Source: Myxococcota bacterium
GTDB taxonomy: Bacteria; Myxococcota_A; Polyangia; Nannocystales; Nannocystaceae
Assembly (NCBI GenBank): GCA_039028615.1
Contig: JBCCHT010000001.1
Location: 640,001 to 704,000 of the forward strand
DNA length: 64,000 nucleotides
Direction: 5' to 3'
Below the pieces are notes generated by a model. That model was not told the DNA's origin. It ran no database searches and saw nothing but the letters and a program-made list of their open reading frames with translations. Positions 21,802-33,415 of this stretch are shown here, piece after piece (positions within the stretch are counted from its first letter, which is position 1; each line of letters opens with the position of its first letter). The position numbers were made by a program, and so were the translations under genes.

Positions 21802-24645
21802 TCATGGACTCATCAACTCCTGAGGCCAGACCACCTCGCGGACGGGACCCAACTGGGCTCCGCCGTGGTTCTTGGCCTCGTAAAGGGCTTCGTCGGCCGC
21901 CCCAACCAATCGCTCGGCGATCGTCTTGAGGAGGTCCGGCGTAATCGGTTCGACACTCGGATTCGAAGAGGCGGGGCGCAGCAAGGCGGCCGCACCCACG
22001 CTGCAGCGCAGGGGCCCCTCGACGCCTTCGATCACCTCGCGGCGTGCGTGCCCGAGGATTCGCCGGGCCACACTTCGCGCGCCTTCGTGGTCGCTGTCGG
22101 GCAGGATCAACGCAAACTCGTCCCCGCCGTAGCGGGCGATCACGTCGTGGTCTCGGGTTGCTCGCCGCAGGACTCGACCCACCGCCACCAGGGCCCGGTC
22201 TCCCGCCAGGTGCCCCCCCGAGTCGTTGATCCGCTTCATGTCGTCCATGTCCACCATCAGCACACCCACCGGGCGTCGACTGGCGAACGCGGCCTCGATC
22301 TCGCGGGGCAACCACTCGTCGAAGAAGCGCCGGGCATGGACCTCGGTGAGCGGGTCCTGGGCGGCCATTTGGTAGAGCCGCGCGTTGTGGATCGCCGCGG
22401 TGGCCTGGTTGGCGAAGGTCCCGAGCAGTTCCAGGTCGTGCCACGAGACCCCGCTGCGCTCCACGTAGACCACCCCCGCCGCTTGCTTGCCCGCGACCAG
22501 GGGCACGGCCACGCCTTCTTCCATGCGACCGGTACGGCCCGCCGCGAACGCGTCGCGGATCGAGTCGAGCACGGACGCGGGCAGGGTCTCGATCGCGGTC
22601 CGGTCCTCGAATCGACCCGAGCGCGCGAGCACGGCCAGCGGTGGCGTGCCCTTCGTGCCCGCAATGGTGGGTATCTCGATGGAGGGCGCCCGATCGCCGC
22701 CGGGCGTCAGGGCGATGAATGCATGCTCGCTGCCGAGCAAGTTGGAAAGCTGCCCCAGGATGTCCCCGTACAGCTCGCTCAGCGGCCGACAGCGGACCGA
22801 CATCTGGCCGAGCGAGGCCATGGACTCGGACACCAGCATGCGCCGCTGGCCCTCTTGCAGCGCCTTGTAGGCCCGCTCGAGCTGCTCGTTGCGCTCCTCG
22901 AGGTCGCGCAGTAGCTGCTCCCGCTCGCGGTTCTTGTCGAGCACCTCCTGGACCAGCAGCGCCCCTTTGAGCGCGGCGCTGATCTGGTCGCGGAGCGCCT
23001 CGTAGATGACCCCCTCGCGCGGGCCGAACTCGAACATCGCCAGGCCCAGCTGCTCATCGCCGAAAAACAGGTTCTGCACCACGAAGCAGCGCGGCTGTAC
23101 GCCCAAGACTCCGGGCGGGGCGAGTTTTTTCGTTTCGAAGCGCGGCCGCCCCTGCACCCGCAGCGAAGGTCGCTTGGCATCGAGCGCGAGCACCATCTCC
23201 GCCTGCGCCGGGCCGTCGACGTACAGTGACAGGTAGCAGCTACGAATGCCCAAGCGGGGGAACTGCTCCGCCACTGCCTCGACCAGCGAGACCACGTCGA
23301 AGGTGTTGATGAGGGCGGCGATGGTCTGACCCAGGCTCCGCGCCCAGGCCTGGACCTGGAGTCGCTGGTGGGCCTGGGCGTGCTCGACGAGTTCCGCGAT
23401 GGCGATCCGGGCCTCCTCGCAGAGGTCTTCGACCCGCAAGCGATCGCTCTGGGCAGCACCGATGCACGACAGCGTCTCGCGGCGCAGGATCGAGATCACG
23501 TCCTGGAGACTCGAACCGTCCGTCCGCACACGCAGGGCATGGGACACGACCTCGCGTACGGTCCGGGTGAACTGGCCGCGGTGGCCTCCGCCGAGCTCAC
23601 TGGTCAGCGAGTCGAGCAATCGCGGCGCCCAGCCGTCGCCCGCGCTGCGCATCGGCGTGACCAGAGCGTGCTGCATTTCCTCGAGCGCCGCATCGCGACG
23701 GGCAGCCAGAGCCTCCGCAAAGCCCGTGTCCGAGGCCTTGCGACCGAGGTTCGCATTGCCGTTGTTGCCGTGACGCAGGCCCGACGAGCGGCGCTTGACC
23801 AGCTCGGTCGCCAACACGACCCGCCCCGAGGTCCGGTCGCCTCTCAGGCTGGCCAACAGCGACAGCGCGGCCCGCTTGCCCTGCTCGTAGAGCGGCTGCC
23901 GGACGGTGGTCAGCGGGATCTCGCAGAAGCGCGACTCCTCGATGTCGTTGAAGCCGACGACCGCAATCTCCTCCGGCACCGCAATCCCCCGCGCGAGCAA
24001 GGCGTCGAGCACCCCGATGGCCATGAGATCGTCGGCCACCGCGATCGCATCCGGCTTGGCTCCGCCATCGAGGAGCTCGGCCACCGCCGCGGCCCCTGAA
24101 GCCCGCGTGAAGTCCCCGCGCACCACCAGGGTGGGATCGATGGCCAGCCCCAGCCGCCCTACCGCGTCGAGATACGCCCGGTAGCGACGCTCGGCCTCCG
24201 CATTCACCACCGGGCCGCGCACGAACGCCACCCGACGCCGGCCGCAGTCGTGCACGAGGTGCCGCATCGCCTCCCGCATGCCGCCCTCGTTGTCGACCAG
24301 CACGTTGAACGCATCCGGGAGCTCGACCGCGACGCTGCAGATCGGCATCGGCCGGTAGCGCTCGAGGAACTCCCCCAGGGCCTTGGTCCCGACCGCGTTG
24401 GCGAGCGCCCCCGTCATCACGATCAGCCCATCGACGCTGTCCGGGCCCACCAGATCGAGCAGGACGTTGCGCCCCGACGAGGCCGGCAACGGCGATCGCA
24501 GCACCCCGGCCGCGAAGCAGCGCAGGCCTGCGCCCTGCTCTCGTGCGGCCGCGGCCGCGCCCCGCAGGACCGAGCTCTGGTACGTCGCATCCAAGGCGTC
24601 GGTCACCAGGCCGAGCACGTGGTGCTGTCTCGAAACGCCAGACAT
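21802..24645 (-). CDS. Diguanylate cyclase with N-terminal LacI-type sugar-binding domain, GAF and GGDEF
   Basis: VDNEGGMREAMRHL, GDFTRASG, DDLMAIG, VPEEIAVVGFND, LTTVRQP (Peripla_BP_3, no HTH); DPLT, MVDMDDMKRINDSGGHLAGD, RDHD I-site, RYGGDEF; start approximate (ORF open to 24789). Confidence 0.88.
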   Translation of the reverse strand: MSGVSRQHHVLGLVTDALDATYQSSVLRGAAAAAREQGAGLRCFAAGVLRSPLPASSGRNVLLDLVGPDSVDGLIVMTGALANAVGTKALGEFLERYRPMPICSVAVELPDAFNVLVDNEGGMREAMRHLVHDCGRRRVAFVRGPVVNAEAERRYRAYLDAVGRLGLAIDPTLVVRGDFTRASGAAAVAELLDGGAKPDAIAVADDLMAIGVLDALLARGIAVPEEIAVVGFNDIEESRFCEIPLTTVRQPLYEQGKRAALSLLASLRGDRTSGRVVLATELVKRRSSGLRHGNNGNANLGRKASDTGFAEALAARRDAALEEMQHALVTPMRSAGDGWAPRLLDSLTSELGGGHRGQFTRTVREVVSHALRVRTDGSSLQDVISILRRETLSCIGAAQSDRLRVEDLCEEARIAIAELVEHAQAHQRLQVQAWARSLGQTIAALINTFDVVSLVEAVAEQFPRLGIRSCYLSLYVDGPAQAEMVLALDAKRPSLRVQGRPRFETKKLAPPGVLGVQPRCFVVQNLFFGDEQLGLAMFEFGPREGVIYEALRDQISAALKGALLVQEVLDKNREREQLLRDLEERNEQLERAYKALQEGQRRMLVSESMASLGQMSVRCRPLSELYGDILGQLSNLLGSEHAFIALTPGGDRAPSIEIPTIAGTKGTPPLAVLARSGRFEDRTAIETLPASVLDSIRDAFAAGRTGRMEEGVAVPLVAGKQAAGVVYVERSGVSWHDLELLGTFANQATAAIHNARLYQMAAQDPLTEVHARRFFDEWLPREIEAAFASRRPVGVLMVDMDDMKRINDSGGHLAGDRALVAVGRVLRRATRDHDVIARYGGDEFALILPDSDHEGARSVARRILGHARREVIEGVEGPLRCSVGAAALLRPASSNPSVEPITPDLLKTIAERLVGAADEALYEAKNHGGAQLGPVREVVWPQELMSP

Positions 24646-24913
24646 CGAAAACCGCCGCGGGCCGGGGTCCGAAGGGACGAGCCCGGCCCCCGACTCCGTT
24701 GCAATAAACCGACCAGATGGCGTGCCAGCGGCAGTACGAAGCAATCGCCCGTGGTAGCGGTCCGATGCGCTCATCCCGAGCCGGGTCAAACGATTCCGTG
24801 CGGACCGAAGCGATCACCAATGCGGGCCTAAACGAACGTAGCGGCCCGCAATGGTATGGGAACGACGAGATCCGCCGGTACGCCCACACCCGGAATTCGC
24901 GGCGTGATTTGGC

Positions 24914-27900
24914 ATGATGACGGTCGTGACCTCCACGCCGAGGGTGCATCGCAGCCCACGAATCCTGCTGCACATGTCCGACCCCCAGTTCGGACGGCAC
25001 CACCGCCCCGCGACCGGGGGCACGGCGGCCGATCGCGATCACGACACGCTGTGTGCGCGGCTTCTGCAGGACCTCGCCGGGCTCGAGCACGAGGGGCAAC
25101 GAGTGCAGCCCGAGCTGGTGGTGGTGACCGGGGATCTCAGCGAGCAGGCGCGGCCCTCGGAGTTCGCCGCCTTCGAGACCTTCGCGCAGGGCTTGCTCGA
25201 GGGCCTGAGCCTGCCGCGCGAACGCCTGATCGTCGTGCCGGGCAATCACGACGTGAGCTGGGCGGGTTGCGAGGCGCACTTCAAGCAGTGCGAAGCCGAA
25301 GAGCTCGAGCCACAGGCGCCCTACTGGCCCAAGTGGCGGGGCTACACCGACCTGTTCTCGCGCCTGTACGGCGGGCCGCAGGCGCGGTTCGAGTTCAACG
25401 AAGGGCGGCCGTACTCGCTGTTCGTGTACGAGTCGCTGCGGACCGTCGTGGCGGGCCTCAACTCGACCATGCTCGAGACCCATCGGGATGGCGATCACTT
25501 CGGCTACGTCGGCGAGGACCAGCTGCGCTGGTTCTCCGAGCAGCTGCGACCCTTCATGCAGCAGGGGTGGCTGCGGATCGCGGCCGTGCACCACAACGTG
25601 CAGCGCAACTCGGTCGACGACGACGAGAACCTGCGCGACGAGCCGATGTTCAAGCAGCTCCTCGGCGAGCAAGTGAACCTGGTCCTGCACGGCCACACCC
25701 ACGACGGCACCATGGGATGGCTCGACGCTCGGGTGCCCATCCTCAGCACGGGGAGCGCCGCGGTCGAGGCCGTAGCGCGCCCGCATGGCGTGCCGTGCCA
25801 GTACCAGGTGCTGCGCATCGAGGAAGACCGCGTGCGTCGCTGGACGCGGGCGTACAACGCAGCGCATCACCGCTGGCAGGCCGACGTGGCTGCATCCGCG
25901 AGCGGCAACGAATGGGTCCACGACCATGCAGTGGCCTTCGTGGACCTGCACGGGGTGTTTCCCCCGCAGAGCGCCGAAGACGAGGTCGAGGAACCACTGC
26001 GGCTCGATCCGAGACGCGCAGCTGGGGTCCGGAGCCACGGCAGCGGGGACGACTATCTCGAGCAGCTGGCGAAGATCTGCCGATTGCAACGCGGGCACGG
26101 CGAGGTCGCGCGTCGCCACAAGGGACCGCCGTTCATCGAGTACCTCGAGGTGCGCCGCCAGCATGGCGAACACGTGGAGCTGGTGCCGATCACCGGTCGA
26201 GCCTCGGGGGTCGACGAGCAAGCGCTCGATGACTTCGCGCAACGCATCGTGCCCGCCTATCGCTCCCGTGACCCCGGCGTGCGGCCGATCTTCGTCTACG
26301 GAGGGCCACCCACGTCCGAATCGCTGGTCGAGCGCGCACGTGCGGCCGGGGTCTGGCTGCGCTCGTACGAGCAGTATTGCGGTTTGATCGACTTTCGGCG
26401 CTACCGAGCCGCGCTCGCGCAGCGGCTGGGACGCGACCAGAACTACCCCTCGGACAAGTACGTCGGGCAGCGAATGGTCGAGCACATCGGCATCGAACAA
26501 AAGCGGCACGAAGACGCGCTGGCCAGCGTGCGCCGCTGGCTCGACGACGAGCGCGGTCGCTTCGTGTTGGTGCTGGGGACCTTCGGGACCGGCAAGACCT
26601 TCCTGCTCCGCGAGCTGGCGCGACGCCTCGCCGCCGAAGACGGGGCCGTAGTGCCGATCTTGGTCGAGATGCGGAGCCTCGAAAAAGGCTTACGACTCGA
26701 GCAGCTGTTGGCCCAGCACTTTGCCCTGCACGACGTCGAGGACTACAGCCCCGCCCGATTCATGCGCATGCTCGAGGACGGCCGGGTGGTGCTGCTCTTC
26801 GACGGCTTCGACGAGCTGGTGGTGCGCTCGACCTACGCGCGAGCGGCCGAGCACTTCGAGACGATCGTGTCCGCCGCACGAGGACGGGCCAAGGTCGTGG
26901 TGACCAGCCGACGACAGCACTTCTTGTCGGATCACCAGGCCAAGGAGGCCGTGCGACAGATGCTGATGCAGAAGGTCGAACTCGTGCCCGGGCATCGAGT
27001 GGTGACCTTGCTGCCCTTCGAGGACGACCAGATTCAGCGATTCTTGGCGTGGCACCTGGGCGACGAAGCGGCGGCGCAGGAGCGGATGAAGCTCATCGCG
27101 GAGGTGCGGGACCTGTCGGGGTTGAGCACCAACCCTCGCATGCTCGGGTTCATCGCGGCGCTGACCGAGACCGAGCTGCGAGCGGCGCGAGACCAGCAAG
27201 GATCGGTGAGTGCGGCGCGGCTGTACGAGTCGCTGCTCACGCGGTGGTTGGCGTTCGAGCATGACCGTCGGCACCCGCGAGGCGCGGCGCCGGGGCTCTC
27301 GGTGGATACGCGATGGGACGCCGTGACCGAGCTGGCCGAGCGGATGTGGACGCAGGGTGAGCATCAAGTCGGCGTGGCCGAGCTCGAGCAGCTGGGGGAG
27401 GTGCTGACCGAGCTGGCGAAAGGGAGCCGGCAAGAAGCTGGGTTTCAGATCGGCTCGGGCACGTTGTTGGTGCGTGACGAGGAGGGGCGCTTTTCGTTCA
27501 TTCACGAGTCCGTGATGGAGTGGTTGGTGGCGCGGGCGGCAGCGGAGGCGCTGGCCGACGATGAAGCGCCGCCGCTGCTCGGGCGCGGGAAGATGTCGCA
27601 ATTGCTGGCCGATTTTTTGATCGATCTGGCGGGCGCGAAGACGGTCGAGGCGTGGTCGGATCGGGCGCTGGCAGCCAATATGGGCACGGCGACGGCCGAC
27701 AATGCGCTGCTCGTGCGACGGCGGCTGGAGGTCGCGGGATTGATCGCGCCCCAGGCGGTTGCGGGCGAGGTGGACCTGCGAAGGCTCGAGCTCGAGGGGC
27801 GAGACCTGTCGGGGCAGCGACTGGCGCGGGCGAAGCTGACGGGTGCCGATCTGCGCGGGGCAAACTTGCGGCGGACGGTGCTGACGGGGGCGTTGCTCGA

Positions 27901-30070
27901 TCGGGCGCGGTTGAGTCGAGCGGACCTGAGTGGGGCTGATCTGCGGGATACGGATCTGCGCGAGGCGGATCTGCGTCATGCGAATCTGCTCGGCGCTCGG
28001 ATGACGGGGGCGAAGCTCGCGGGGGCGCAGCTGGATCGGGCGAAGCTGATCGGGGCTACGCGTGGGCCGGATGGCCTCGCGGAGGCCTCGACGCCCGGTG
28101 CTGCGTTGCCGGGTGCGCGGTTGAGACCGTTCGTGGCCACCGCGATCCAGCGAATCAACGCACTCGCGATGTCACCAGTTGGGCCATGGCTCGCGGTGGC
28201 CGATGGGCTCCACGTGAGGCTGTGGGATACCGAGCAGCAGGAAGAAGTGCGTCGCTTCGCGCCTGGGCGTGCCGAGGTTACGGCGCTCGCATTCGGAGCC
28301 GACGGCACGTTGGTGGTTGGCACGCGGGCGGGCGAGGTCTCGCGATGGAACGTCGAGCAATGGTCGCTGCGACAGACCCATGCGCACAGCCAAGCCGTAC
28401 TCGAGGTCGGCCTCGCTCACGATGGTTCCATTCTGTCGCTCGACCGCTCGGGCAATCTGCATTGCCCGAGCGGAATCGTGGCTCAACCCGGCATCGTAGA
28501 TGTCACGGCAGTCGCGGTTCACCCGGACTCCGGGCGCATCGCGGTCGGGTTCAGCTCTGGTGTGCTCCGCGTGCAGTGGGAGCACGGCATTGGGACGATC
28601 ACCCAGTCGCCCGCTCCGACGGCCCTCGTCTGGTCCAAGAGTGGTGACGAACTGGCGTACACGGGTCTCGACGGACGCGCGGGACTTGCGACGCTCTCGA
28701 CGGGGCAGTTGAAACTCACCGGCGCTCTCGCTCTCGTGGAGCCGACTACGGTCCTTTCCTCTGCGGGTGATGATCGATGGCTGACGGGGTCGGGGAACGG
28801 CCTAGTACGACTGTGGGAAAGCGGCAGGCTCCGCGGGACCGTCGACCAACACCCGGGACCTATCACAGCGATCGCGTGTGATCACCACGGTCGAGTTTGG
28901 TCGTCCTCCCACGAGGCAGGGCTCTACTGCGTGGAACTTCCGAGCACAGCGAAGGCGAACCTCGATGGCCTCACGTCCATGCACATGGGTCCAGAGCCAC
29001 GAAGGGGAGTCCGAGCGCTCGCGGTTGCCACCAATGGCAGCCTCACCGTCGCCGTCGACGAGCGAATCGTGAGCGTCACCCCCTCGCAGCGCATCGTCAA
29101 CGACATCCTCGACTGTGCAAACGCAGACGAAATCATCCTGTCCCGCGATGGCCTCGGTGTCACGACCCTCCACGGACGACAGCTCACCCTCCATCGTTTC
29201 TTTCCCTTCGAAGGCCGAGAACCCGTCAGATTGCGCCACGAGCTGAACCACGTGCCCACATGCGTGGCGACGCTCGGACCCGGCTCGGCACAAATCCTGC
29301 TCGCCACCGAAGGCGACCGCGGCCAAATCCAGCAGCTACGCCTGCTCGAAGAGGGCGAAGACGTGCTCGAGCACCGGGGCACCGTCGGTCGCGTGACGGG
29401 GCTGGCCGGGTCACCCGACAGTCGATGGATCGCCGCGGCGTGCAGCGATCATGTGCTGCACGTGCTCTCACCGCTGTCCCGAGAAGCTCTCGCTCCCCCT
29501 CTACTGCTCTCCGGGCATCGGCAGGACATCAGCGCGCTGGAGCTATGCAACGACGATCTCGCTGCATCGGGGTCGCTCGATGGCATGGTGATCGTCTGGG
29601 ACCTGCTTGCGGGTCGAGCACGACAAAAGTGGACCATGGCGGAAGGGGCCAACGCGCTGGCCTTCGGACCCGAGGAGATGGTCGCTGCGGGCGGCTTCAA
29701 CGGCACCGTGCAGCTGTGGACTCTCGGCCGCGATGAACCCACGGCGAGCATCGTGGCCCACGAAGGGAGCATCACGTCACTGCTCTTCGTGTCCGCTTCA
29801 CGACTGGTGACCGGTTCGAGGGATGGCACGGCTCGGGTTTGGCAGCTTCCCCAGATCGAGCTGCTCGCCACGCTCGCCCCGCTGCCCGAGGGCTGGGTCG
29901 CGGTCACGCCCGACGGTCGCTACAAAACGGGCGGCCGAGTGACGGGCGATCTATGGCACGTCGCTGCGCAGTGCCGTTTCGAGGTCGGCGAACTCGACGA
30001 GGTCCTGCCCGAGCTACGACTCGGACCGACAGACCCACTGATCGAACCGATGGGTTCAGCCAAGGGCTAG
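24914..30070 (+). CDS. NLR-like STAND protein: calcineurin-like metallophosphoesterase + NACHT + pentapeptide repeats + WD40
   Basis: HMSDPQFG / VTGDL / VPGNHD / VHHN / LHGHTH phosphoesterase motifs; Walker A GTFGTGKT, Walker B LLFDGFDEL, NPRML, FSFIHESVMEW; ADLRGANL repeats; SGSLDGMVIVWD and TGSRDGTARVWQ. Confidence 0.9.
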   Translation: MMTVVTSTPRVHRSPRILLHMSDPQFGRHHRPATGGTAADRDHDTLCARLLQDLAGLEHEGQRVQPELVVVTGDLSEQARPSEFAAFETFAQGLLEGLSLPRERLIVVPGNHDVSWAGCEAHFKQCEAEELEPQAPYWPKWRGYTDLFSRLYGGPQARFEFNEGRPYSLFVYESLRTVVAGLNSTMLETHRDGDHFGYVGEDQLRWFSEQLRPFMQQGWLRIAAVHHNVQRNSVDDDENLRDEPMFKQLLGEQVNLVLHGHTHDGTMGWLDARVPILSTGSAAVEAVARPHGVPCQYQVLRIEEDRVRRWTRAYNAAHHRWQADVAASASGNEWVHDHAVAFVDLHGVFPPQSAEDEVEEPLRLDPRRAAGVRSHGSGDDYLEQLAKICRLQRGHGEVARRHKGPPFIEYLEVRRQHGEHVELVPITGRASGVDEQALDDFAQRIVPAYRSRDPGVRPIFVYGGPPTSESLVERARAAGVWLRSYEQYCGLIDFRRYRAALAQRLGRDQNYPSDKYVGQRMVEHIGIEQKRHEDALASVRRWLDDERGRFVLVLGTFGTGKTFLLRELARRLAAEDGAVVPILVEMRSLEKGLRLEQLLAQHFALHDVEDYSPARFMRMLEDGRVVLLFDGFDELVVRSTYARAAEHFETIVSAARGRAKVVVTSRRQHFLSDHQAKEAVRQMLMQKVELVPGHRVVTLLPFEDDQIQRFLAWHLGDEAAAQERMKLIAEVRDLSGLSTNPRMLGFIAALTETELRAARDQQGSVSAARLYESLLTRWLAFEHDRRHPRGAAPGLSVDTRWDAVTELAERMWTQGEHQVGVAELEQLGEVLTELAKGSRQEAGFQIGSGTLLVRDEEGRFSFIHESVMEWLVARAAAEALADDEAPPLLGRGKMSQLLADFLIDLAGAKTVEAWSDRALAANMGTATADNALLVRRRLEVAGLIAPQAVAGEVDLRRLELEGRDLSGQRLARAKLTGADLRGANLRRTVLTGALLDRARLSRADLSGADLRDTDLREADLRHANLLGARMTGAKLAGAQLDRAKLIGATRGPDGLAEASTPGAALPGARLRPFVATAIQRINALAMSPVGPWLAVADGLHVRLWDTEQQEEVRRFAPGRAEVTALAFGADGTLVVGTRAGEVSRWNVEQWSLRQTHAHSQAVLEVGLAHDGSILSLDRSGNLHCPSGIVAQPGIVDVTAVAVHPDSGRIAVGFSSGVLRVQWEHGIGTITQSPAPTALVWSKSGDELAYTGLDGRAGLATLSTGQLKLTGALALVEPTTVLSSAGDDRWLTGSGNGLVRLWESGRLRGTVDQHPGPITAIACDHHGRVWSSSHEAGLYCVELPSTAKANLDGLTSMHMGPEPRRGVRALAVATNGSLTVAVDERIVSVTPSQRIVNDILDCANADEIILSRDGLGVTTLHGRQLTLHRFFPFEGREPVRLRHELNHVPTCVATLGPGSAQILLATEGDRGQIQQLRLLEEGEDVLEHRGTVGRVTGLAGSPDSRWIAAACSDHVLHVLSPLSREALAPPLLLSGHRQDISALELCNDDLAASGSLDGMVIVWDLLAGRARQKWTMAEGANALAFGPEEMVAAGGFNGTVQLWTLGRDEPTASIVAHEGSITSLLFVSASRLVTGSRDGTARVWQLPQIELLATLAPLPEGWVAVTPDGRYKTGGRVTGDLWHVAAQCRFEVGELDEVLPELRLGPTDPLIEPMGSAKG

Positions 30071-30073
30071 CCG

Positions 30074-31336
30074 CTACGCACTGCGGCGCACTTGCGTGTT
30101 CCGCCCACCAGCCGCCGACCGATCGTACTCGTTGTCGTCGTACCAAAACTCCCAGTGCCCGGTGTCGATCCATCTCTCGAATCGGCGGGTAAAGTCGTCC
30201 CTCGATTCCACCGCCGTCTCGGCCCACGGATAGATCGGGCGGTCTCCCGAGGTCAGCGGAGGAATCGCAATCCCCCGCGCTTGCAACAACGCCAGCCCCA
30301 TCAGCTCCGAGACGGCCCCCTGCCCCCGATGCGTCACCGTCAGGTGATTGACATCATAGGTAATTTTCGCTGCACAACGAATCACCACCCGCCGGTCTTC
30401 AGTCGCCAGACCTCGCTTCAGGCAGGCGTCCAAGCCGACCATCGCCGATTCGTATTGCGCCCGGCTGTAGCGAATGTGCCGTACACGAAAGCAGCGGTAG
30501 TTACGAACGAATCGCGTCTCGGCATGAACATCGGGAAACACCTCGATTTTGTGTACATCCTTGCGATCGAGGTGCTCCTTCAAGACGTCGTTGTACCGAT
30601 CATAGCGTCCAGGCCCAGACAGCCGTTCACGCAGAGGGGTGCCGTACCAGCCCGTTTCGTTGTCGTTGACTCGTACCTTGGAGAAGTACGCTCCATCGGG
30701 TGACCCCTCGGCCAAGCTCGCTCGCCAGTGCGTCGAGGAGTTGAGGTAGGCCGAAAACGCAGGGGCACCGGGTACGTCGAGCGTCGGATCGACCTGCTCG
30801 GGAAATCGGTTCGGGACCTCGTCGTAGCCCGCCCGTAGCCGCTCGGCGAAATCATCCATCTGTAGCTCGATCTTCTCGATGAACCCGCCCGCGTAGGGAA
30901 TGGCAGGGTCGCCCACCAGCTCGTCGCGCCCTTTGAAGGGCCGGGAGCCCTCGTAGTTCTCTCCGGCAAGCGCTCGTGCCGGGGGCAACGGTCGCGGCTC
31001 GACCTCGAAGCTCGCGATTGCCACCCGCCCCCGACGCACCTGGCACCGTAGGCACAACGACTTCGCATGCTTCGGCGCTCGTAGCCATCTCGACTCTAGA
31101 TCGGAAGTGACGACGACGGTGTAGTCCCCGGGCTCGAGGTCGGCGAACCGGGCCGGACAACCGACCGCCGTGCTCGCGGTGTGGCCGGTCTCTTCGATCC
31201 TCACCTCGATGCCACCGACCTCGGCCTTGTCCGCGTCGTGCACACTCACGAGCAACGTGCCGCGAAACCAACCGCACGAGCGCATCGGCATCCCGACCTT
31301 CTTGGCTCCCTCGCCGGCTGCAGCCCACCACGGCAT
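30074..31336 (-). CDS. Putative secreted effector: N-terminal transthyretin/carboxypeptidase-like beta domain and C-terminal AvrB/Fido-like domain
   Basis: N-terminal LLVSVHD...ARFADLEPGDYTVVV; C-terminal NHLTVTHRGQGAVSEL...ARGIAIPP...DDFTRRF; visibly more AT-rich than flanks. Confidence 0.5.
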   Translation of the reverse strand: MPWWAAAGEGAKKVGMPMRSCGWFRGTLLVSVHDADKAEVGGIEVRIEETGHTASTAVGCPARFADLEPGDYTVVVTSDLESRWLRAPKHAKSLCLRCQVRRGRVAIASFEVEPRPLPPARALAGENYEGSRPFKGRDELVGDPAIPYAGGFIEKIELQMDDFAERLRAGYDEVPNRFPEQVDPTLDVPGAPAFSAYLNSSTHWRASLAEGSPDGAYFSKVRVNDNETGWYGTPLRERLSGPGRYDRYNDVLKEHLDRKDVHKIEVFPDVHAETRFVRNYRCFRVRHIRYSRAQYESAMVGLDACLKRGLATEDRRVVIRCAAKITYDVNHLTVTHRGQGAVSELMGLALLQARGIAIPPLTSGDRPIYPWAETAVESRDDFTRRFERWIDTGHWEFWYDDNEYDRSAAGGRNTQVRRSA

Positions 31337-31343
31337 CGCTCGA

Positions 31344-31712
31344 TCAGGCTCCCCAACCCCACGAAAGGCGCGACTGAAGGAGCTGTGTCTTCTCGGCCCC
31401 GCTCAGCTCGACCTGCTCCAGCAGGGTCCGCGCCCACTCGAACCCGGTCCGCAGCTCGAACCCCGAGCCACGCTCCACGCTCAACAACACGAACCCCGCC
31501 ACGTCGGTCTCGTCATCGATCCCGTAGCCGACCGCACGGTCGATCAAGCCGGATACGAGCCGGTGGAGTCTCCCCTGCTCTTCTCCACGCTCGCGCCGAT
31601 CCGTGCGCGACGGAGGATGGACACGAAGCACCTGCTGTACGACGTCGGCGGTGAAGCGCGCCCGATCGGCCGACGCGAGCGCAGCGAGCTGCTCGTCCCG
31701 GATCTGAAACAT
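31344..31712 (-). CDS. Small protein resembling T6SS DUF4123-associated adaptor/co-chaperone domain
   Basis: MFQIRDEQLAAL...F...IDRAVGYGIDDETDVAGFV...GSGFE...EWARTLL pattern; GGAGGT SD; 7 bp upstream of the effector-like gene. Confidence 0.5.
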   Translation of the reverse strand: MFQIRDEQLAALASADRARFTADVVQQVLRVHPPSRTDRRERGEEQGRLHRLVSGLIDRAVGYGIDDETDVAGFVLLSVERGSGFELRTGFEWARTLLEQVELSGAEKTQLLQSRLSWGWGA

Positions 31713-31919
31713 CAGCCGACCTCCGCCTCGGCACGCCCGGTGCTCCAGCCCGCGGCAGTCGTCCGCGCACCGTGAATGGATGAGATACGCCCACGACGAC
31801 GCGACCAGACCCACCGGACGTGAAGCGGCAGCGTTCGAGCGGTCTGCGGTCGGCCCACGTGGGAGGAAGTCACCGCCGCCGCCCGAAGTCATTCAGGAGG
31901 ACGGCGCCTTTTTTGTAGG

Positions 31920-32360
31920 CTATCCCTCGGTGGTCTCGTCTCCTTGGGTCGTCGATTCGCCGCTCTCGGTGTCTCCAGACTCACTGCCGCCGGTCCCCGA
32001 GGAGCCTCCGGTCCCCGAAGAACTCTCGGATGTCGCCCACCCCCCATCGGACGACGTCACCTCGTCATCACCGCCCTCGGTGGCCACCCCGGTGCTGTCG
32101 GGCGGTCCGGCATAGGTCGCGCCTTCTCCCCAGCTATCGGGATCGCTCGCGTTCCCCGAATTCGCCGAATCCACACTCGTGGTGAACATGTCATCGGTTC
32201 CGTCCCCGGTGCAGCCAGCCAAGCCGAGGCTCATGACCAATCCCAGCTCCACCTTCCACCGTGCGGGCGCGGCATGGGGGCGACGCAGCGTGGCTCCACA
32301 AAACGGGCACTCGGCATCCCGAGCAAACACATGACGATTGCACTCGTAGCAAGTCTTCAT
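31920..32360 (-). CDS. Small myxobacterial protein with N-terminal Zn ribbon, hydrophobic/lipobox segment and acidic tail
   Basis: CYECNRHV..DAECPFCG, LGLAGC, YAGPP motif, Ser/Gly/Glu tail. Confidence 0.7.
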   Translation of the reverse strand: MKTCYECNRHVFARDAECPFCGATLRRPHAAPARWKVELGLVMSLGLAGCTGDGTDDMFTTSVDSANSGNASDPDSWGEGATYAGPPDSTGVATEGGDDEVTSSDGGWATSESSSGTGGSSGTGGSESGDTESGESTTQGDETTEG

Positions 32361-32455
32361 TGAGAAAACCTCGTACGACCACGAGTGTCGACCGCCGTCG
32401 ATTCGATCGTTTTTCAGCGACCAGGCGTCGTGCGTATCACGGAAGTCGGCAAGCC

Positions 32456-33415
32456 TCAGGCCTGCGGCTCGGCGAAGACCTCTTCGAGCGTCGCCGCCGT
32501 CAGTACGCGCTCGACCCATCGGTCGAGTTGCTCGACGCCCGCCCCCTCGAGCCGCTGCTGCGTTGCCCTCGTCGGCGGACCGAACTTCAACTCGAGCAAA
32601 CGAAGCAACGTGCGTGCTTCACCTTCGATTCGGCCGCGAGCTTCGCCTTCGGCGCGGAGTTCGTCGAAGAAATCACGGGCCTCGCGTTCCACCTCGGGGT
32701 TCATCGTGCTCATGATCGTCTCCAACTCTCGTCGGTAGGCTCCACCAATATACTTCCAAAACGGTAGCAGCGCCTCGACGCCGCGCTCTAGACGCACCTC
32801 GACGAAGAGGCGGCTCAGTCGTTCTCCTCGTTCCCGACCCGACAGTCCTCGTGCCACCGCAACGAGCGCCGCACGGGAGGTCGCGTCGCAGTGGGCCCGC
32901 GCCTGCTCGAAGCGATCGAGCTGCGCCCGGTTCAGCTCGAGGACCTCCATTCGAAGATCGAGGTAGGGACCCTCTTCGATCGCGAGTGGCGGAGTAAGCT
33001 CGGAGAGCTGTCGCGCTTTGGTCCATCGGCCACCCGTGTAGAGCAACAGCGGGATCACGAACGGCAACCGATCGCGCATGACATCCCGCCGTTCTCGATA
33101 CTGCCGCAGCGCATTGCAGGCATACGACAGCTGCCGCAGCGGCATCATGGGATCTTCGGTCGTCTGGTTCTCCCACAGGCAGTACACCAGGGCCTCACCA
33201 CCCCCGCGAGCATCGATTTCGAACACGAGGTCGCTGAAGCTCGCCCTCAGGTCGGCATCGACATAGCTCCCGTTGATCAACCGCAAGGTAGACCAGTCCA
33301 GCCATTCGCCGACGTCTTCGGTCAAGGCGATGCGAAGCACGCCAGCGGCATGCTCGGGCTTGGACAGAATCTCCTTCAGGAACTGGTCGTGAGGCGGTCG
33401 CTTGGCCGACGCCAT
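32456..33415 (-). CDS. Rpn (YhgA-like/Transposase_31) recombination-promoting nuclease with DUF4351-like C-terminus
   Basis: PHDQFLK, SYVDADLRASFSDLVF, YCLWENQT..DPMMPLR, LPFVIPLLLYTG, EGEARGRIEGEAR..LLELKFG..TLEEVF. Confidence 0.9.
   Translation of the reverse strand: MASAKRPPHDQFLKEILSKPEHAAGVLRIALTEDVGEWLDWSTLRLINGSYVDADLRASFSDLVFEIDARGGGEALVYCLWENQTTEDPMMPLRQLSYACNALRQYRERRDVMRDRLPFVIPLLLYTGGRWTKARQLSELTPPLAIEEGPYLDLRMEVLELNRAQLDRFEQARAHCDATSRAALVAVARGLSGRERGERLSRLFVEVRLERGVEALLPFWKYIGGAYRRELETIMSTMNPEVEREARDFFDELRAEGEARGRIEGEARTLLRLLELKFGPPTRATQQRLEGAGVEQLDRWVERVLTAATLEEVFAEPQA

Follow-up and report, generated by a model that had tools for sequence, protein, structure and literature searches.

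A single-gene NACHT protein of the Myxococcota with a DxQ-type phosphoesterase and a double-propeller sensor half: a candidate phage-triggered immune receptor

The subject of this report is one gene in a 64,000-nucleotide stretch of DNA from a Myxococcota bacterium of the Nannocystaceae (assembly GCA_039028615.1, contig JBCCHT010000001.1, positions 640,001 to 704,000), called the window below. The gene lies at 24914-30070 of the forward strand and has the layout of the bacterial proteins related to NOD-like receptors (NLRs): an N-terminal effector slot, here holding a phosphoesterase, a NACHT NTPase, and a C-terminal sensor made of repeats are all present. The reading favored here, and on balance a probable one, is that the protein is a phage-triggered, nucleotide- or NAD+-depleting single-gene NLR of multicellular bacteria. 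The ATPase motifs are intact, the phosphoesterase has the class III motif with one histidine changed to glutamine, and the effector slot is filled by other enzymes in some related proteins. The gene is also patchily distributed, and the first of its two propellers changes fast. That such a protein acts against phages by abortive infection is something we infer from DS-8, the Metis/PUA-Cal-HAD systems, and the bNACHT proteins.

Gene and domain architecture

The open reading frame (ORF) encodes 1718 amino acids (aa) with no internal stop, and M1, M2, and V5 are its possible starts, the choice among them being uncertain. Pfam places Metallophos at residues 19-264 (E 5e-10, 40.5 bits, cut-off 21.5), NA-iREase3 (PF22739) at 379-494 (E 2e-23, 83.6 bits, cut-off 27), and NACHT (PF05729) at 549-713 (E 3e-10, 40.6 bits, cut-off 26.7), followed by four stretches of Pentapeptide (PF00805, E 2e-28) and by WD40 repeats (E 1.5e-26), both also above cut-off. 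The NACHT motifs are a Walker A (G555-TFGTGK-T562), a Walker B (627-LLFDGFDE-634), and R666. Their conservation was counted in an alignment of 105 rows, taken from a set of 119 homologs. Besides the query it contains 104 proteins in which both domains are present, and it excludes the self hit, an insert-bearing protein, and 14 proteins without the phosphoesterase. K561 of Walker A is kept in 104 of the 105 rows, and D630, D633, and E634 of Walker B are kept in every row. The closest named homolog, from Paraliomyxa miuraensis, is 70% identical over residues 1-930.

The AlphaFold2 (AF2) model of residues 12-497 (predicted local distance difference test, pLDDT, of 91) has a phosphoesterase fold, a disordered linker, and an alpha-beta-beta-beta-alpha-beta-alpha-beta domain. 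That of residues 931-1718 (pLDDT 88, predicted TM score 0.87) begins with a beta-helix and continues with all-beta repeats, which match tandem double propellers in a fold search. The protein ends in a conserved tail of about 60 residues that a profile finds in 93 of the 119 homologs. A preliminary description, made from the letters of the window alone, had called a phosphoesterase, a linker, a NACHT, a pentapeptide, and a WD40 domain, and each is backed by Pfam above cut-off. Its claims of intact Walker A and B motifs and of phosphoesterase motifs with DPQ in place of DxH also hold, both Walker motifs being complete. The WD40 sensor is present as well, but it is not the simple run that was described, since the AF2 model has two propellers plus the conserved tail. 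The gene stands alone, its upstream neighbor being divergent and its downstream neighbor convergent, which agrees with the single-gene arrangement that had been proposed.

The segment before the NACHT had been likened to an inactive Mrr-like fold, a reading that is supported, and the three strings quoted for it all fall inside NA-iREase3. In 44 aligned rows, no conserved acidic or lysine column stands at the expected PD-(D/E)xK site, and Mrr_cat was offered for the linker by the Atlas as a lead only (0.87). Because NA-iREase3 is found by profile in 118 of the 119 homologs irrespective of their effector, it belongs to the NACHT chassis. Among 201 sampled genomes of the phylum, PF22739 is above cut-off in the host only, whose 12.3 Mb genome has one copy of it and four NACHT matches above cut-off.

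The phosphoesterase and its DPQ motif

The phosphoesterase motifs are D23-P-Q25, G73-D74-x-x-E77, G110-N-H-D113, H226-H227, and G260-H-T-H263. They make up the complete class III motif, D-GD-GNH[ED]-H-GHxH as defined in PMC8366450, and together with the fold place the domain among the class III or calcineurin-like metallophosphoesterases. The unusual residue is Gln25, which stands where Rv0805 and PUA-Cal have histidine. Among the 150 best of 378 relatives (clusters at 50% identity, E <= 1e-30), this position holds glutamine in 131, a gap in 9, arginine in 7, and histidine in 2. In the same 150 relatives D113, K140, and H226 are invariant, and each of D23, D74, N111, H112, H227, H261, and H263 is retained in 138 or more, the rows without D23 or D74 being mostly gaps. 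Because glutamine is so prevalent and the other class III residues are kept, DPQ is best seen as a family trait and not as decay. In the 105-row alignment, Q25 accompanies intact motifs in 68 of 69 rows and is found in none of the 31 degraded ones; of the complete rows, 29 out of 100 have a degraded phosphoesterase.

The solved structures closest to the AF2 model of the domain are Rv0805 (Z 24.4, root-mean-square deviation 2.4 over 223), GpdQ (Z 22.7), and SMPDL3A (Z 22.6). Rv0805/CpdA and GpdQ have the same fold and class III motif, but they are stand-alone enzymes with about 20% identity to the domain, and Rv0805 has DxH. A match to YydB (Z 28.8, root-mean-square deviation 3.6 over 295) was discarded, as it is to an integrative model and a literature search did not establish the role of YydB. 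TAL-effector and Mre11 C-terminal matches from a sequence search of the PDB were judged spurious.

Kinship with known defense systems

The best NCBIfam match of the protein is a partial one to DS9_1, an anti-phage phosphoesterase (E 3e-29, 102 bits), and CpdA reaches 29 bits against a cut-off of 225. A plasmid search gave a 549-aa protein of E. coli with a HAD gene directly after it. Because its length and its His209, His293, His462, and His464 equal those of PUA-Cal, it is taken here as a presumptive protein of the MisA/PUA-Cal type. The phosphoesterase family aligns with it in hhalign at 99.2% probability (E 3e-19) over 265 columns with 26% identity. Q25 falls opposite H209, and D23, D74, GNHD, HH, D242, and GHxH are common to both. 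The family profile gives 96 bits to this MisA-type protein, 34 and 60 bits to host phosphoesterases of CpdA size, 70 and 72 bits to two longer host proteins, and 112 bits to a NACHT-fused domain of Nostoc. Profile scores favor a place nearer to the Calcineurin-CE clade (MisA/PUA-Cal type) than to housekeeping phosphoesterases; the tree discussed below does not bring the two groups together. Two host phosphoesterases with DxH score on the family profile: one of 580 aa (G000:C19:43578-45320, minus strand) groups with the MisA-type protein (Shimodaira-Hasegawa-like approximate likelihood ratio test, 99), and one of 1165 aa (G000:C29:13208-16705, plus strand) carries a Walker A motif.

Metis MisA is reported to cleave NAD+ into nicotinamide mononucleotide (NMN) and AMP (10.1101/2025.11.05.686725). 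PUA-Cal is described as converting dNDP to dNMP after HAD, as cleaving NAD+ in vitro without HAD, and as depleting dNTPs at its native locus (10.64898/2026.01.15.699771). In the Metis, DS-9, and PUA-Cal-HAD systems, whose effector is of the Calcineurin-CE type, MisA has a HAD partner and a PUA domain that acts as its switch by binding N6-methyl-dAMP (m6dAMP), whereas here the NACHT would be the switch. No PUA domain is fused to the phosphoesterase, which begins at residue 12 to 19 of the protein, and no HAD gene is found among the window neighbors. DS-8, like the present protein, unites a metallophosphatase and a NACHT in one chain; its fold is said to be like SMPDL3A, its protection against phages to require both domains, and its substrate is left open (PMC13092281). 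Unlike DS-8, the protein here adds NA-iREase3, the pentapeptide helix, and two propellers, and it has DxQ.

The order of effector, NACHT, and repeat sensor is also that of the bNACHT proteins. Kibby et al. name calcineurin-like phosphoesterase, TIR, SIR2, PNPase, and trypsin among the NACHT effectors, count beta-propellers and pentapeptide repeats among the sensors, and report enrichment in multicellular bacteria; none of the proteins tested in the text of that paper has this combination of domains (10.1101/2022.07.19.500537). The Avs and other signal transduction ATPases with numerous domains (STANDs) that have Apaf-1-like WD40 sensors share the STAND NTPase and the tandem beta-propeller with the protein, and the main text describing them mentions neither phosphoesterase nor pentapeptide repeats (Lee et al., PMC13581612). 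Apaf-1 (3shf) is among the fold matches of the sensor, with a TM score of 0.30, which is weak and generic. PADLOC gave only short partial matches on the protein and contains no full-length model for it. Matches to PipB2, Qnr, MfpA, and HetL reflect the pentapeptide repeats, lie far below cut-offs, and were rejected. By analogy, the protein plausibly works like DS-8 and DS-9.

An exchangeable effector slot

The phosphoesterase is missing in 14 of the 119 homologs, 10 of which have TIR in its stead, 1 SIR2, and 2 PNP; the fourteenth is truncated. The TIR replacements are a BLAST cluster with Pfam-confirmed TIR domains, and the SIR2 and PNP calls come from Pfam labels. In the NACHT tree these homologs nest among rows that bear the phosphoesterase. 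Enzymes can also be added in front. Trypsin precedes the phosphoesterase in 19 rows, 17 of them with an intact phosphoesterase, and eight trypsin-fronted loci have Trypco1 directly upstream. TIR precedes it in another 19 rows, all of them degraded and lacking 3 to 5 of 7 catalytic positions, and the glutamate of TIR is kept in 33 of 34 TIR rows. Among the 150 best relatives, the DxQ domain sits on this NACHT in 52 and before another P-loop motif (by Walker A pattern) in 44. A second swap is seen in the genus: the congener G049 has a phosphoesterase-NACHT-FGS protein that is 39% identical over 733 aa to a TIR-DUF4062-NACHT-FGS protein of the host.

By these comparisons the phosphoesterase is a mobile domain and the predicted effector. 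The exchange with TIR, SIR2, and PNP, as well as the alignment to the MisA/PUA-Cal-type protein, supports the effector role that the preliminary description had given it. It had proposed nucleotides or nucleic acid as substrate, and of these a nucleotide, or else NAD+, is better supported than nucleic acid.

Some further variants may be noted. The TIR-DUF4062-NACHT-FGS protein (G000:C26:139195-142710, L135) adjoins a CHAT-TIR gene, and another TIR-fronted NACHT protein of the host is on G000:C85 (L109:9016-13383). In Catellatospora, L086:3574-17120 holds three clustered genes of the family, one of them trypsin-fronted with Trypco1 and one a TIR-phosphoesterase fragment. In P0029, P0044, P0067, and P0019, either the sensor half is replaced (in P0029 by an AAA/ABC-type ATPase) or an insert stands between phosphoesterase and iREase. 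DUF4062 was also assigned by eye to the N-terminal part of P0090, but a pairwise comparison gave no confirmation, and the label is not counted.

Sensor half and distribution

In six close homologs, residues 551-700 are 86-100% identical to the protein and residues 1651-1700 are 62-80% identical. Three of these homologs reach 10-34% identity in residues 1151-1350, and the remaining three have a deletion there. The G049 ortholog shares 89% identity in the nucleotide-binding domain, 71% in the phosphoesterase, 67% in the iREase, 60% in the pentapeptide helix, 35% in propeller 1, 55% in propeller 2, and 72% in the tail, with 75% in the neighboring fmt; fourfold sites between congeners differ at 43-69%. 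The GC content at third codon positions (GC3) is 0.89 in the phosphoesterase, 0.86 in the NACHT, and 0.73-0.75 in the WD40 half. This drop from first to second half is the largest among 284 host genes of at least 1000 aa, while the G049 ortholog keeps 0.85. A GC3 as low as that of propeller 1 is found in 0.9% of 8671 host segments of 270 codons, and three other WD40 genes of the host have 0.86-0.92. Foreign import, fast evolution, or drift could each account for the low-GC3, divergent sensor half.

Of 12 interrupted loci that were inspected, five actinobacterial ones (L083, L089, L090, L095, and L100) have their break at a common position behind the NACHT. In each, a second ORF encodes pentapeptide repeats, WD40, and tail, and these second ORFs have an N-terminal motif in common. 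In four of the five loci the second ORF and the stop of the preceding one overlap, and L090 has an extra frameshift upstream. This points to a natural two-gene form with a separate sensor subunit, probably of one origin. The other seven loci, with scattered breaks, may be pseudogenes or assembly errors.

The core of the gene (roughly 900 of residues 1-930 matched) is found in 6 of 73 genomes of the family, in one of which it is interrupted by an internal stop; of 6 congeners, 3 have it. The gene lies shortly before fmt in the host and G049 and shortly after a PilZ and GH114 pair in G046; the slot is empty in G047 (88% complete) and G048 (72%), which have continuous contigs from GH114 to fmt. 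G047 has a SIR2-like gene in this interval (L131:7853-9001), G050 has a Septu-like PtuA/PtuB pair 4-6 kb from fmt (L132:1-1792), and G046 has a PtuB-like gene about 11 kb from fmt (L134:14147-15307), which suggests that the fmt locus is a variable spot for defense genes in the congeners. Taken together, the patchy gene, its conserved NTPase core and variable propeller 1, and the defense-like genes near fmt suggest the pattern of an arms race.

Proposed mechanism

In the resting state, to judge from known STAND proteins, the half made of pentapeptide repeats and propellers would keep the NACHT in a closed state. The propellers would bind a protein of the phage, or else a host target that the phage has altered, upon which the NACHT would exchange its nucleotide and oligomerize, the dead nuclease domain perhaps serving as a fixed spacer or an assembly adaptor. 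The phosphoesterases clustered in this way would hydrolyze a phosphoanhydride of a key metabolite, most likely NAD+ to NMN and AMP as MisA does, or (d)NDP to (d)NMP as PUA-Cal does. NAD+ cleavage would be the likelier output because there is no HAD partner at the locus and NAD+ is cleaved in vitro without HAD. Growth would then stop or the cell would die, and its neighbors in the swarm would be spared. Trigger, oligomer, substrate, and phenotype are all proposed by analogy in this scheme.

One could consider a broader version, although it is unlikely to be right in all its parts jointly. In it, the DxQ domain would be a distinct mobile subfamily of immune effectors with a rebuilt metal site (Gln25, K140, H190, and H195) and a chemistry or substrate other than that of MisA. 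Effectors would be stacked at the N-terminus with the older ones decaying (dead nuclease, phosphoesterase, then TIR), propeller 1 would be an exchangeable recognition cassette, the sensor would be a separable subunit, and the pentapeptide helix would act as a DNA-mimic bait for phage proteins that handle DNA.

Contrary evidence and alternative explanations

Several results speak against a phage-triggered NLR that depletes nucleotides or NAD+. None of the 105 homolog rows has histidine at the motif I position, so the DxH metal ligand is absent, and with this ligand replaced, catalytic activity is not assured. Of 61 complete homologs that begin with the phosphoesterase, 9 have degraded motifs. 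A housekeeping cAMP phosphodiesterase, Rv0805, is among the nearest solved folds. The 102 bits for DS9_1 are far below its cut-off of 420, and the DS8 model NF053861, of 994 positions, gives 44 bits at residues 59-115 against a cut-off of 790. K140, H190, and H195 are invariant in the family and not shared with the MisA-type protein, and the substrate may therefore differ from that of MisA. In a 21-row phosphoesterase tree, which its long branches make unreliable, the DxQ group and the MisA-type protein do not come together. The association of TIR with decay rests on about three clades, and TIR-fronted L066, L074, L081, L082, and L032 keep GNHD, which makes decay a trend with exceptions. These five come from a locus scan whose patterns favored intact motifs; as it selects DxQ or GNHD, its motif counts are biased, and counts from the protein set are preferred.

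The genomic surroundings count on the same side. PADLOC has no match among 10 window neighbors, and the neighbors of 42 homolog loci are mostly metabolic. Enrichment of homologs in defense islands, which the preliminary description had named as a test, has no clear support, as PADLOC matches 15 of 149 homolog neighbors and 6 of 142 random host genes (p=0.07). These 149 genes are the two nearest called genes on each side at the 42 of 79 loci that have the core and some flank, scanned at a PADLOC threshold of 1e-10, and 147 and 304 more distant called genes lie outside the scan. The control, 142 genes on 18 of 20 stretches chosen at random in the host, comes from a single genome and is not taxon-matched. 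By our reading, 12 of the 15 matches are generic, mostly to generic enzyme models, and specific-looking models number 3 of 149 against 0 of 142 (p=0.25).

The same switch and toxic effector could answer to something other than phages, for example in cell-cell non-self recognition or against another mobile element in multicellular bacteria. The named hosts, which are largely Actinomycetota, Myxococcota, Acidobacteriota, and Planctomycetota, would suit such a role, as would a solo gene outside islands, a WD40 region that varies in length and sequence, and the Trypco1 genes directly upstream of the eight trypsin-fronted loci. Fungal NLRs with WD40 sensors (HET-E, HET-D type) are known to control non-self cell death (10.1101/2020.01.06.895854). 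However, the tested bacterial STANDs in the literature examined all respond to phage, the neighbors of phosphoesterase-first forms include no conserved partner or ligand gene, and the host genome has a single copy, which makes a non-phage trigger rather improbable. A regulatory STAND, whose phosphoesterase would tune signaling as a cyclic-nucleotide phosphodiesterase or protein phosphatase without killing, is distinctly improbable. It would agree with Rv0805, GpdQ, and SMPDL3A being the closest crystal structures and with the complete class III motif, as class III CPPED1 dephosphorylates proteins (PMC8366450). It would likewise agree with the GGDEF gene that lies head to head with the NLR, with the SLATT_2 gene (a two-helix membrane effector) that adjoins six kin Streptosporangiaceae loci (L038, L043, L053, L055, L058, and L083), and with the placing of calcineurin-like domains by Kibby et al. 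under signal-generating or -degrading enzymes (10.1101/2022.07.19.500537). Against it, the slot is shared with TIR, SIR2, and PNP, the family profile scores the MisA-type protein above the CpdA-sized phosphoesterases of the host, the G046 ortholog of the GGDEF gene has no adjoining NLR, and patchy presence with split or frameshifted copies fits a conflict gene.

Two further explanations concern the integrity of the protein. The DxQ domain might be a nucleotide- or metal-binding module or a decoy without catalysis, with the NACHT oligomer or a recruited partner doing the killing. The metal-binding histidine is indeed replaced, degraded copies persist, so that the fold can be kept without catalysis, and the chassis already keeps one dead enzyme domain. 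Yet the seven motif residues counted above are kept too well, and Q25, present with intact motifs and lost from all the degraded rows, behaves too much like an active-site residue for this to be other than very improbable. Finally, the family may be functional and the sensor half of the window copy drifting under relaxed selection, to which we give hardly any credence. The size of the GC3 drop, which the G049 ortholog does not share, and repeats that are degenerate compared with the family consensus would be explained. On the other hand, all 1718 codons are open and the N-terminal motifs intact, the sensor model is confident, and the tail is conserved; the import of a foreign sensor half explains the low GC3 equally well, and the adjacent downstream genes are also low in GC3.

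Significance

Published work already predicts proteins of this general type, so that what is gained is a variant open to testing, not a category of its own; the NA-iREase3 family in Pfam means that curators had already met the linker. A literature search found no paper devoted to the architecture or to the DxQ effector subfamily, although preprint figures and supplements may show it. Lee et al. (PMC13581612) note STANDs with WD40 sensors, and a term search of the supplementary files, three large ones lying outside the search, gave no match. The phage-triggered reading links a newly characterized effector chemistry (NAD+ to NMN and AMP, or dNDP hydrolysis) to NLR control. The published expectation that cleavage of the MisA kind is common in defense (10.1101/2025.11.05.686725) could be tested directly with this protein, which may also show what phosphoesterases of the DS-8 type act on. 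The literature examined names no trigger for any bacterial NLR that has two WD40 propellers in tandem, and specificity could be mapped with the natural alleles of one and two propellers, whose NTPases are nearly identical.

The locus and its neighbors

Table 1. Coordinates of the gene, its parts, its neighbors, and the second ORFs of the two-gene form (window positions unless a locus is named)
Feature	Position	Strand	Basis
NLR-related gene: phosphoesterase-iREase-NACHT-pentapeptide-double WD40 propeller-tail	24914..30070	+	ORF call, Pfam
DxQ-type calcineurin-like metallophosphoesterase (residues 12-345), predicted effector	24947..25948	+	PF00149, partial DS9_1 match, AF2, fold search, hhalign
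Motif I, D23-P-Q25 (Gln for canonical metal-binding His)	24980..24988	+	Column counts in relatives, hhalign
Motif III, GNHD (110-113)	25241..25252	+	Motif, column counts
Motif V, GHTH (260-263)	25691..25702	+	Motif, column counts
NA-iREase3, restriction-endonuclease-like, no conserved catalytic residues (379-494)	26048..26395	+	PF22739
NACHT module (498-930)	26405..27703	+	PF05729, motif counts, identity in close homologs
Walker A	26576-26599	+	
Walker B	26792-26815	+	
Pentapeptide-repeat beta-helix (about 957-1063)	27782..28102	+	PF00805, AF2
First propeller-sized WD40 segment (about 1080-1350), most variable, low GC3	28151..28963	+	AF2, homolog identity
Second WD40 segment (about 1360-1655)	28991..29878	+	Pfam, AF2, fold match
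Conserved C-terminal beta-strand tail (1656-1718)	29879..30067	+	Homolog profile, identity
Divergent neighbor outside the system: LacI-type sugar-binding, GAF, and GGDEF protein	21802..24789	-	Upstream
Convergent low-GC3 stretch from NLR to fmt: 420-aa ORF, two small ORFs, Rpn/YhgA-like gene	30074..33415	-	
Second ORF (pentapeptide-WD40-tail)	L083:6910-9321, L089:12676-15102, L090:12671-14914, L095:12676-15336, L100:12714-15422		

The convergent stretch at 30074..33415 is at most a candidate member of the NLR system. Its 420-aa ORF (30074-31336, minus strand, GC3 0.76) has a weak Pfam match to AvrB_AvrC at residues 319-391 (E 1.9e-5) and no usable match in the Atlas. An ORF of 122-182 aa lies upstream of it on the same strand, and the Rpn/YhgA-like gene (Transposase_31, DUF4351; 32456-33415, minus strand), also low in GC3, adjoins fmt. 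No sigma-70 promoter match was found at the NLR gene, and terminator-like sites are at chance level. The locus has no terminal repeats or repeat arrays, and the repeats found there are pentapeptide codons or due to chance. No RNA data set was listed as containing the gene; the one DNA data set listed, which may be the source of the sequence and is not independent, has a contig that runs across the gene with no differences. The DxQ domain matches one unannotated phage record and 16 records of a plasmid collection, which gives no strong link to mobile elements.

Elsewhere, a type III restriction-modification pair lies about 7 kb from a second copy of the family in G049 (L103:4442-7949), and the host carries the pair as well, on a different contig. 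Genes of the interbacterial toxin-immunity type (PAAR-like, DUF2169, and Imm11-like) are directly downstream of a one-propeller ortholog (L027:15562-20531). In the window itself, positions 164-24789 hold a cluster for polysaccharide use with a GH9 cellulase, a CBM2 protein, an extracytoplasmic function (ECF) sigma factor with a TPR partner, a DUF1552 pair, and the sugar-sensing GGDEF gene, and this cluster is partly syntenic in G046.

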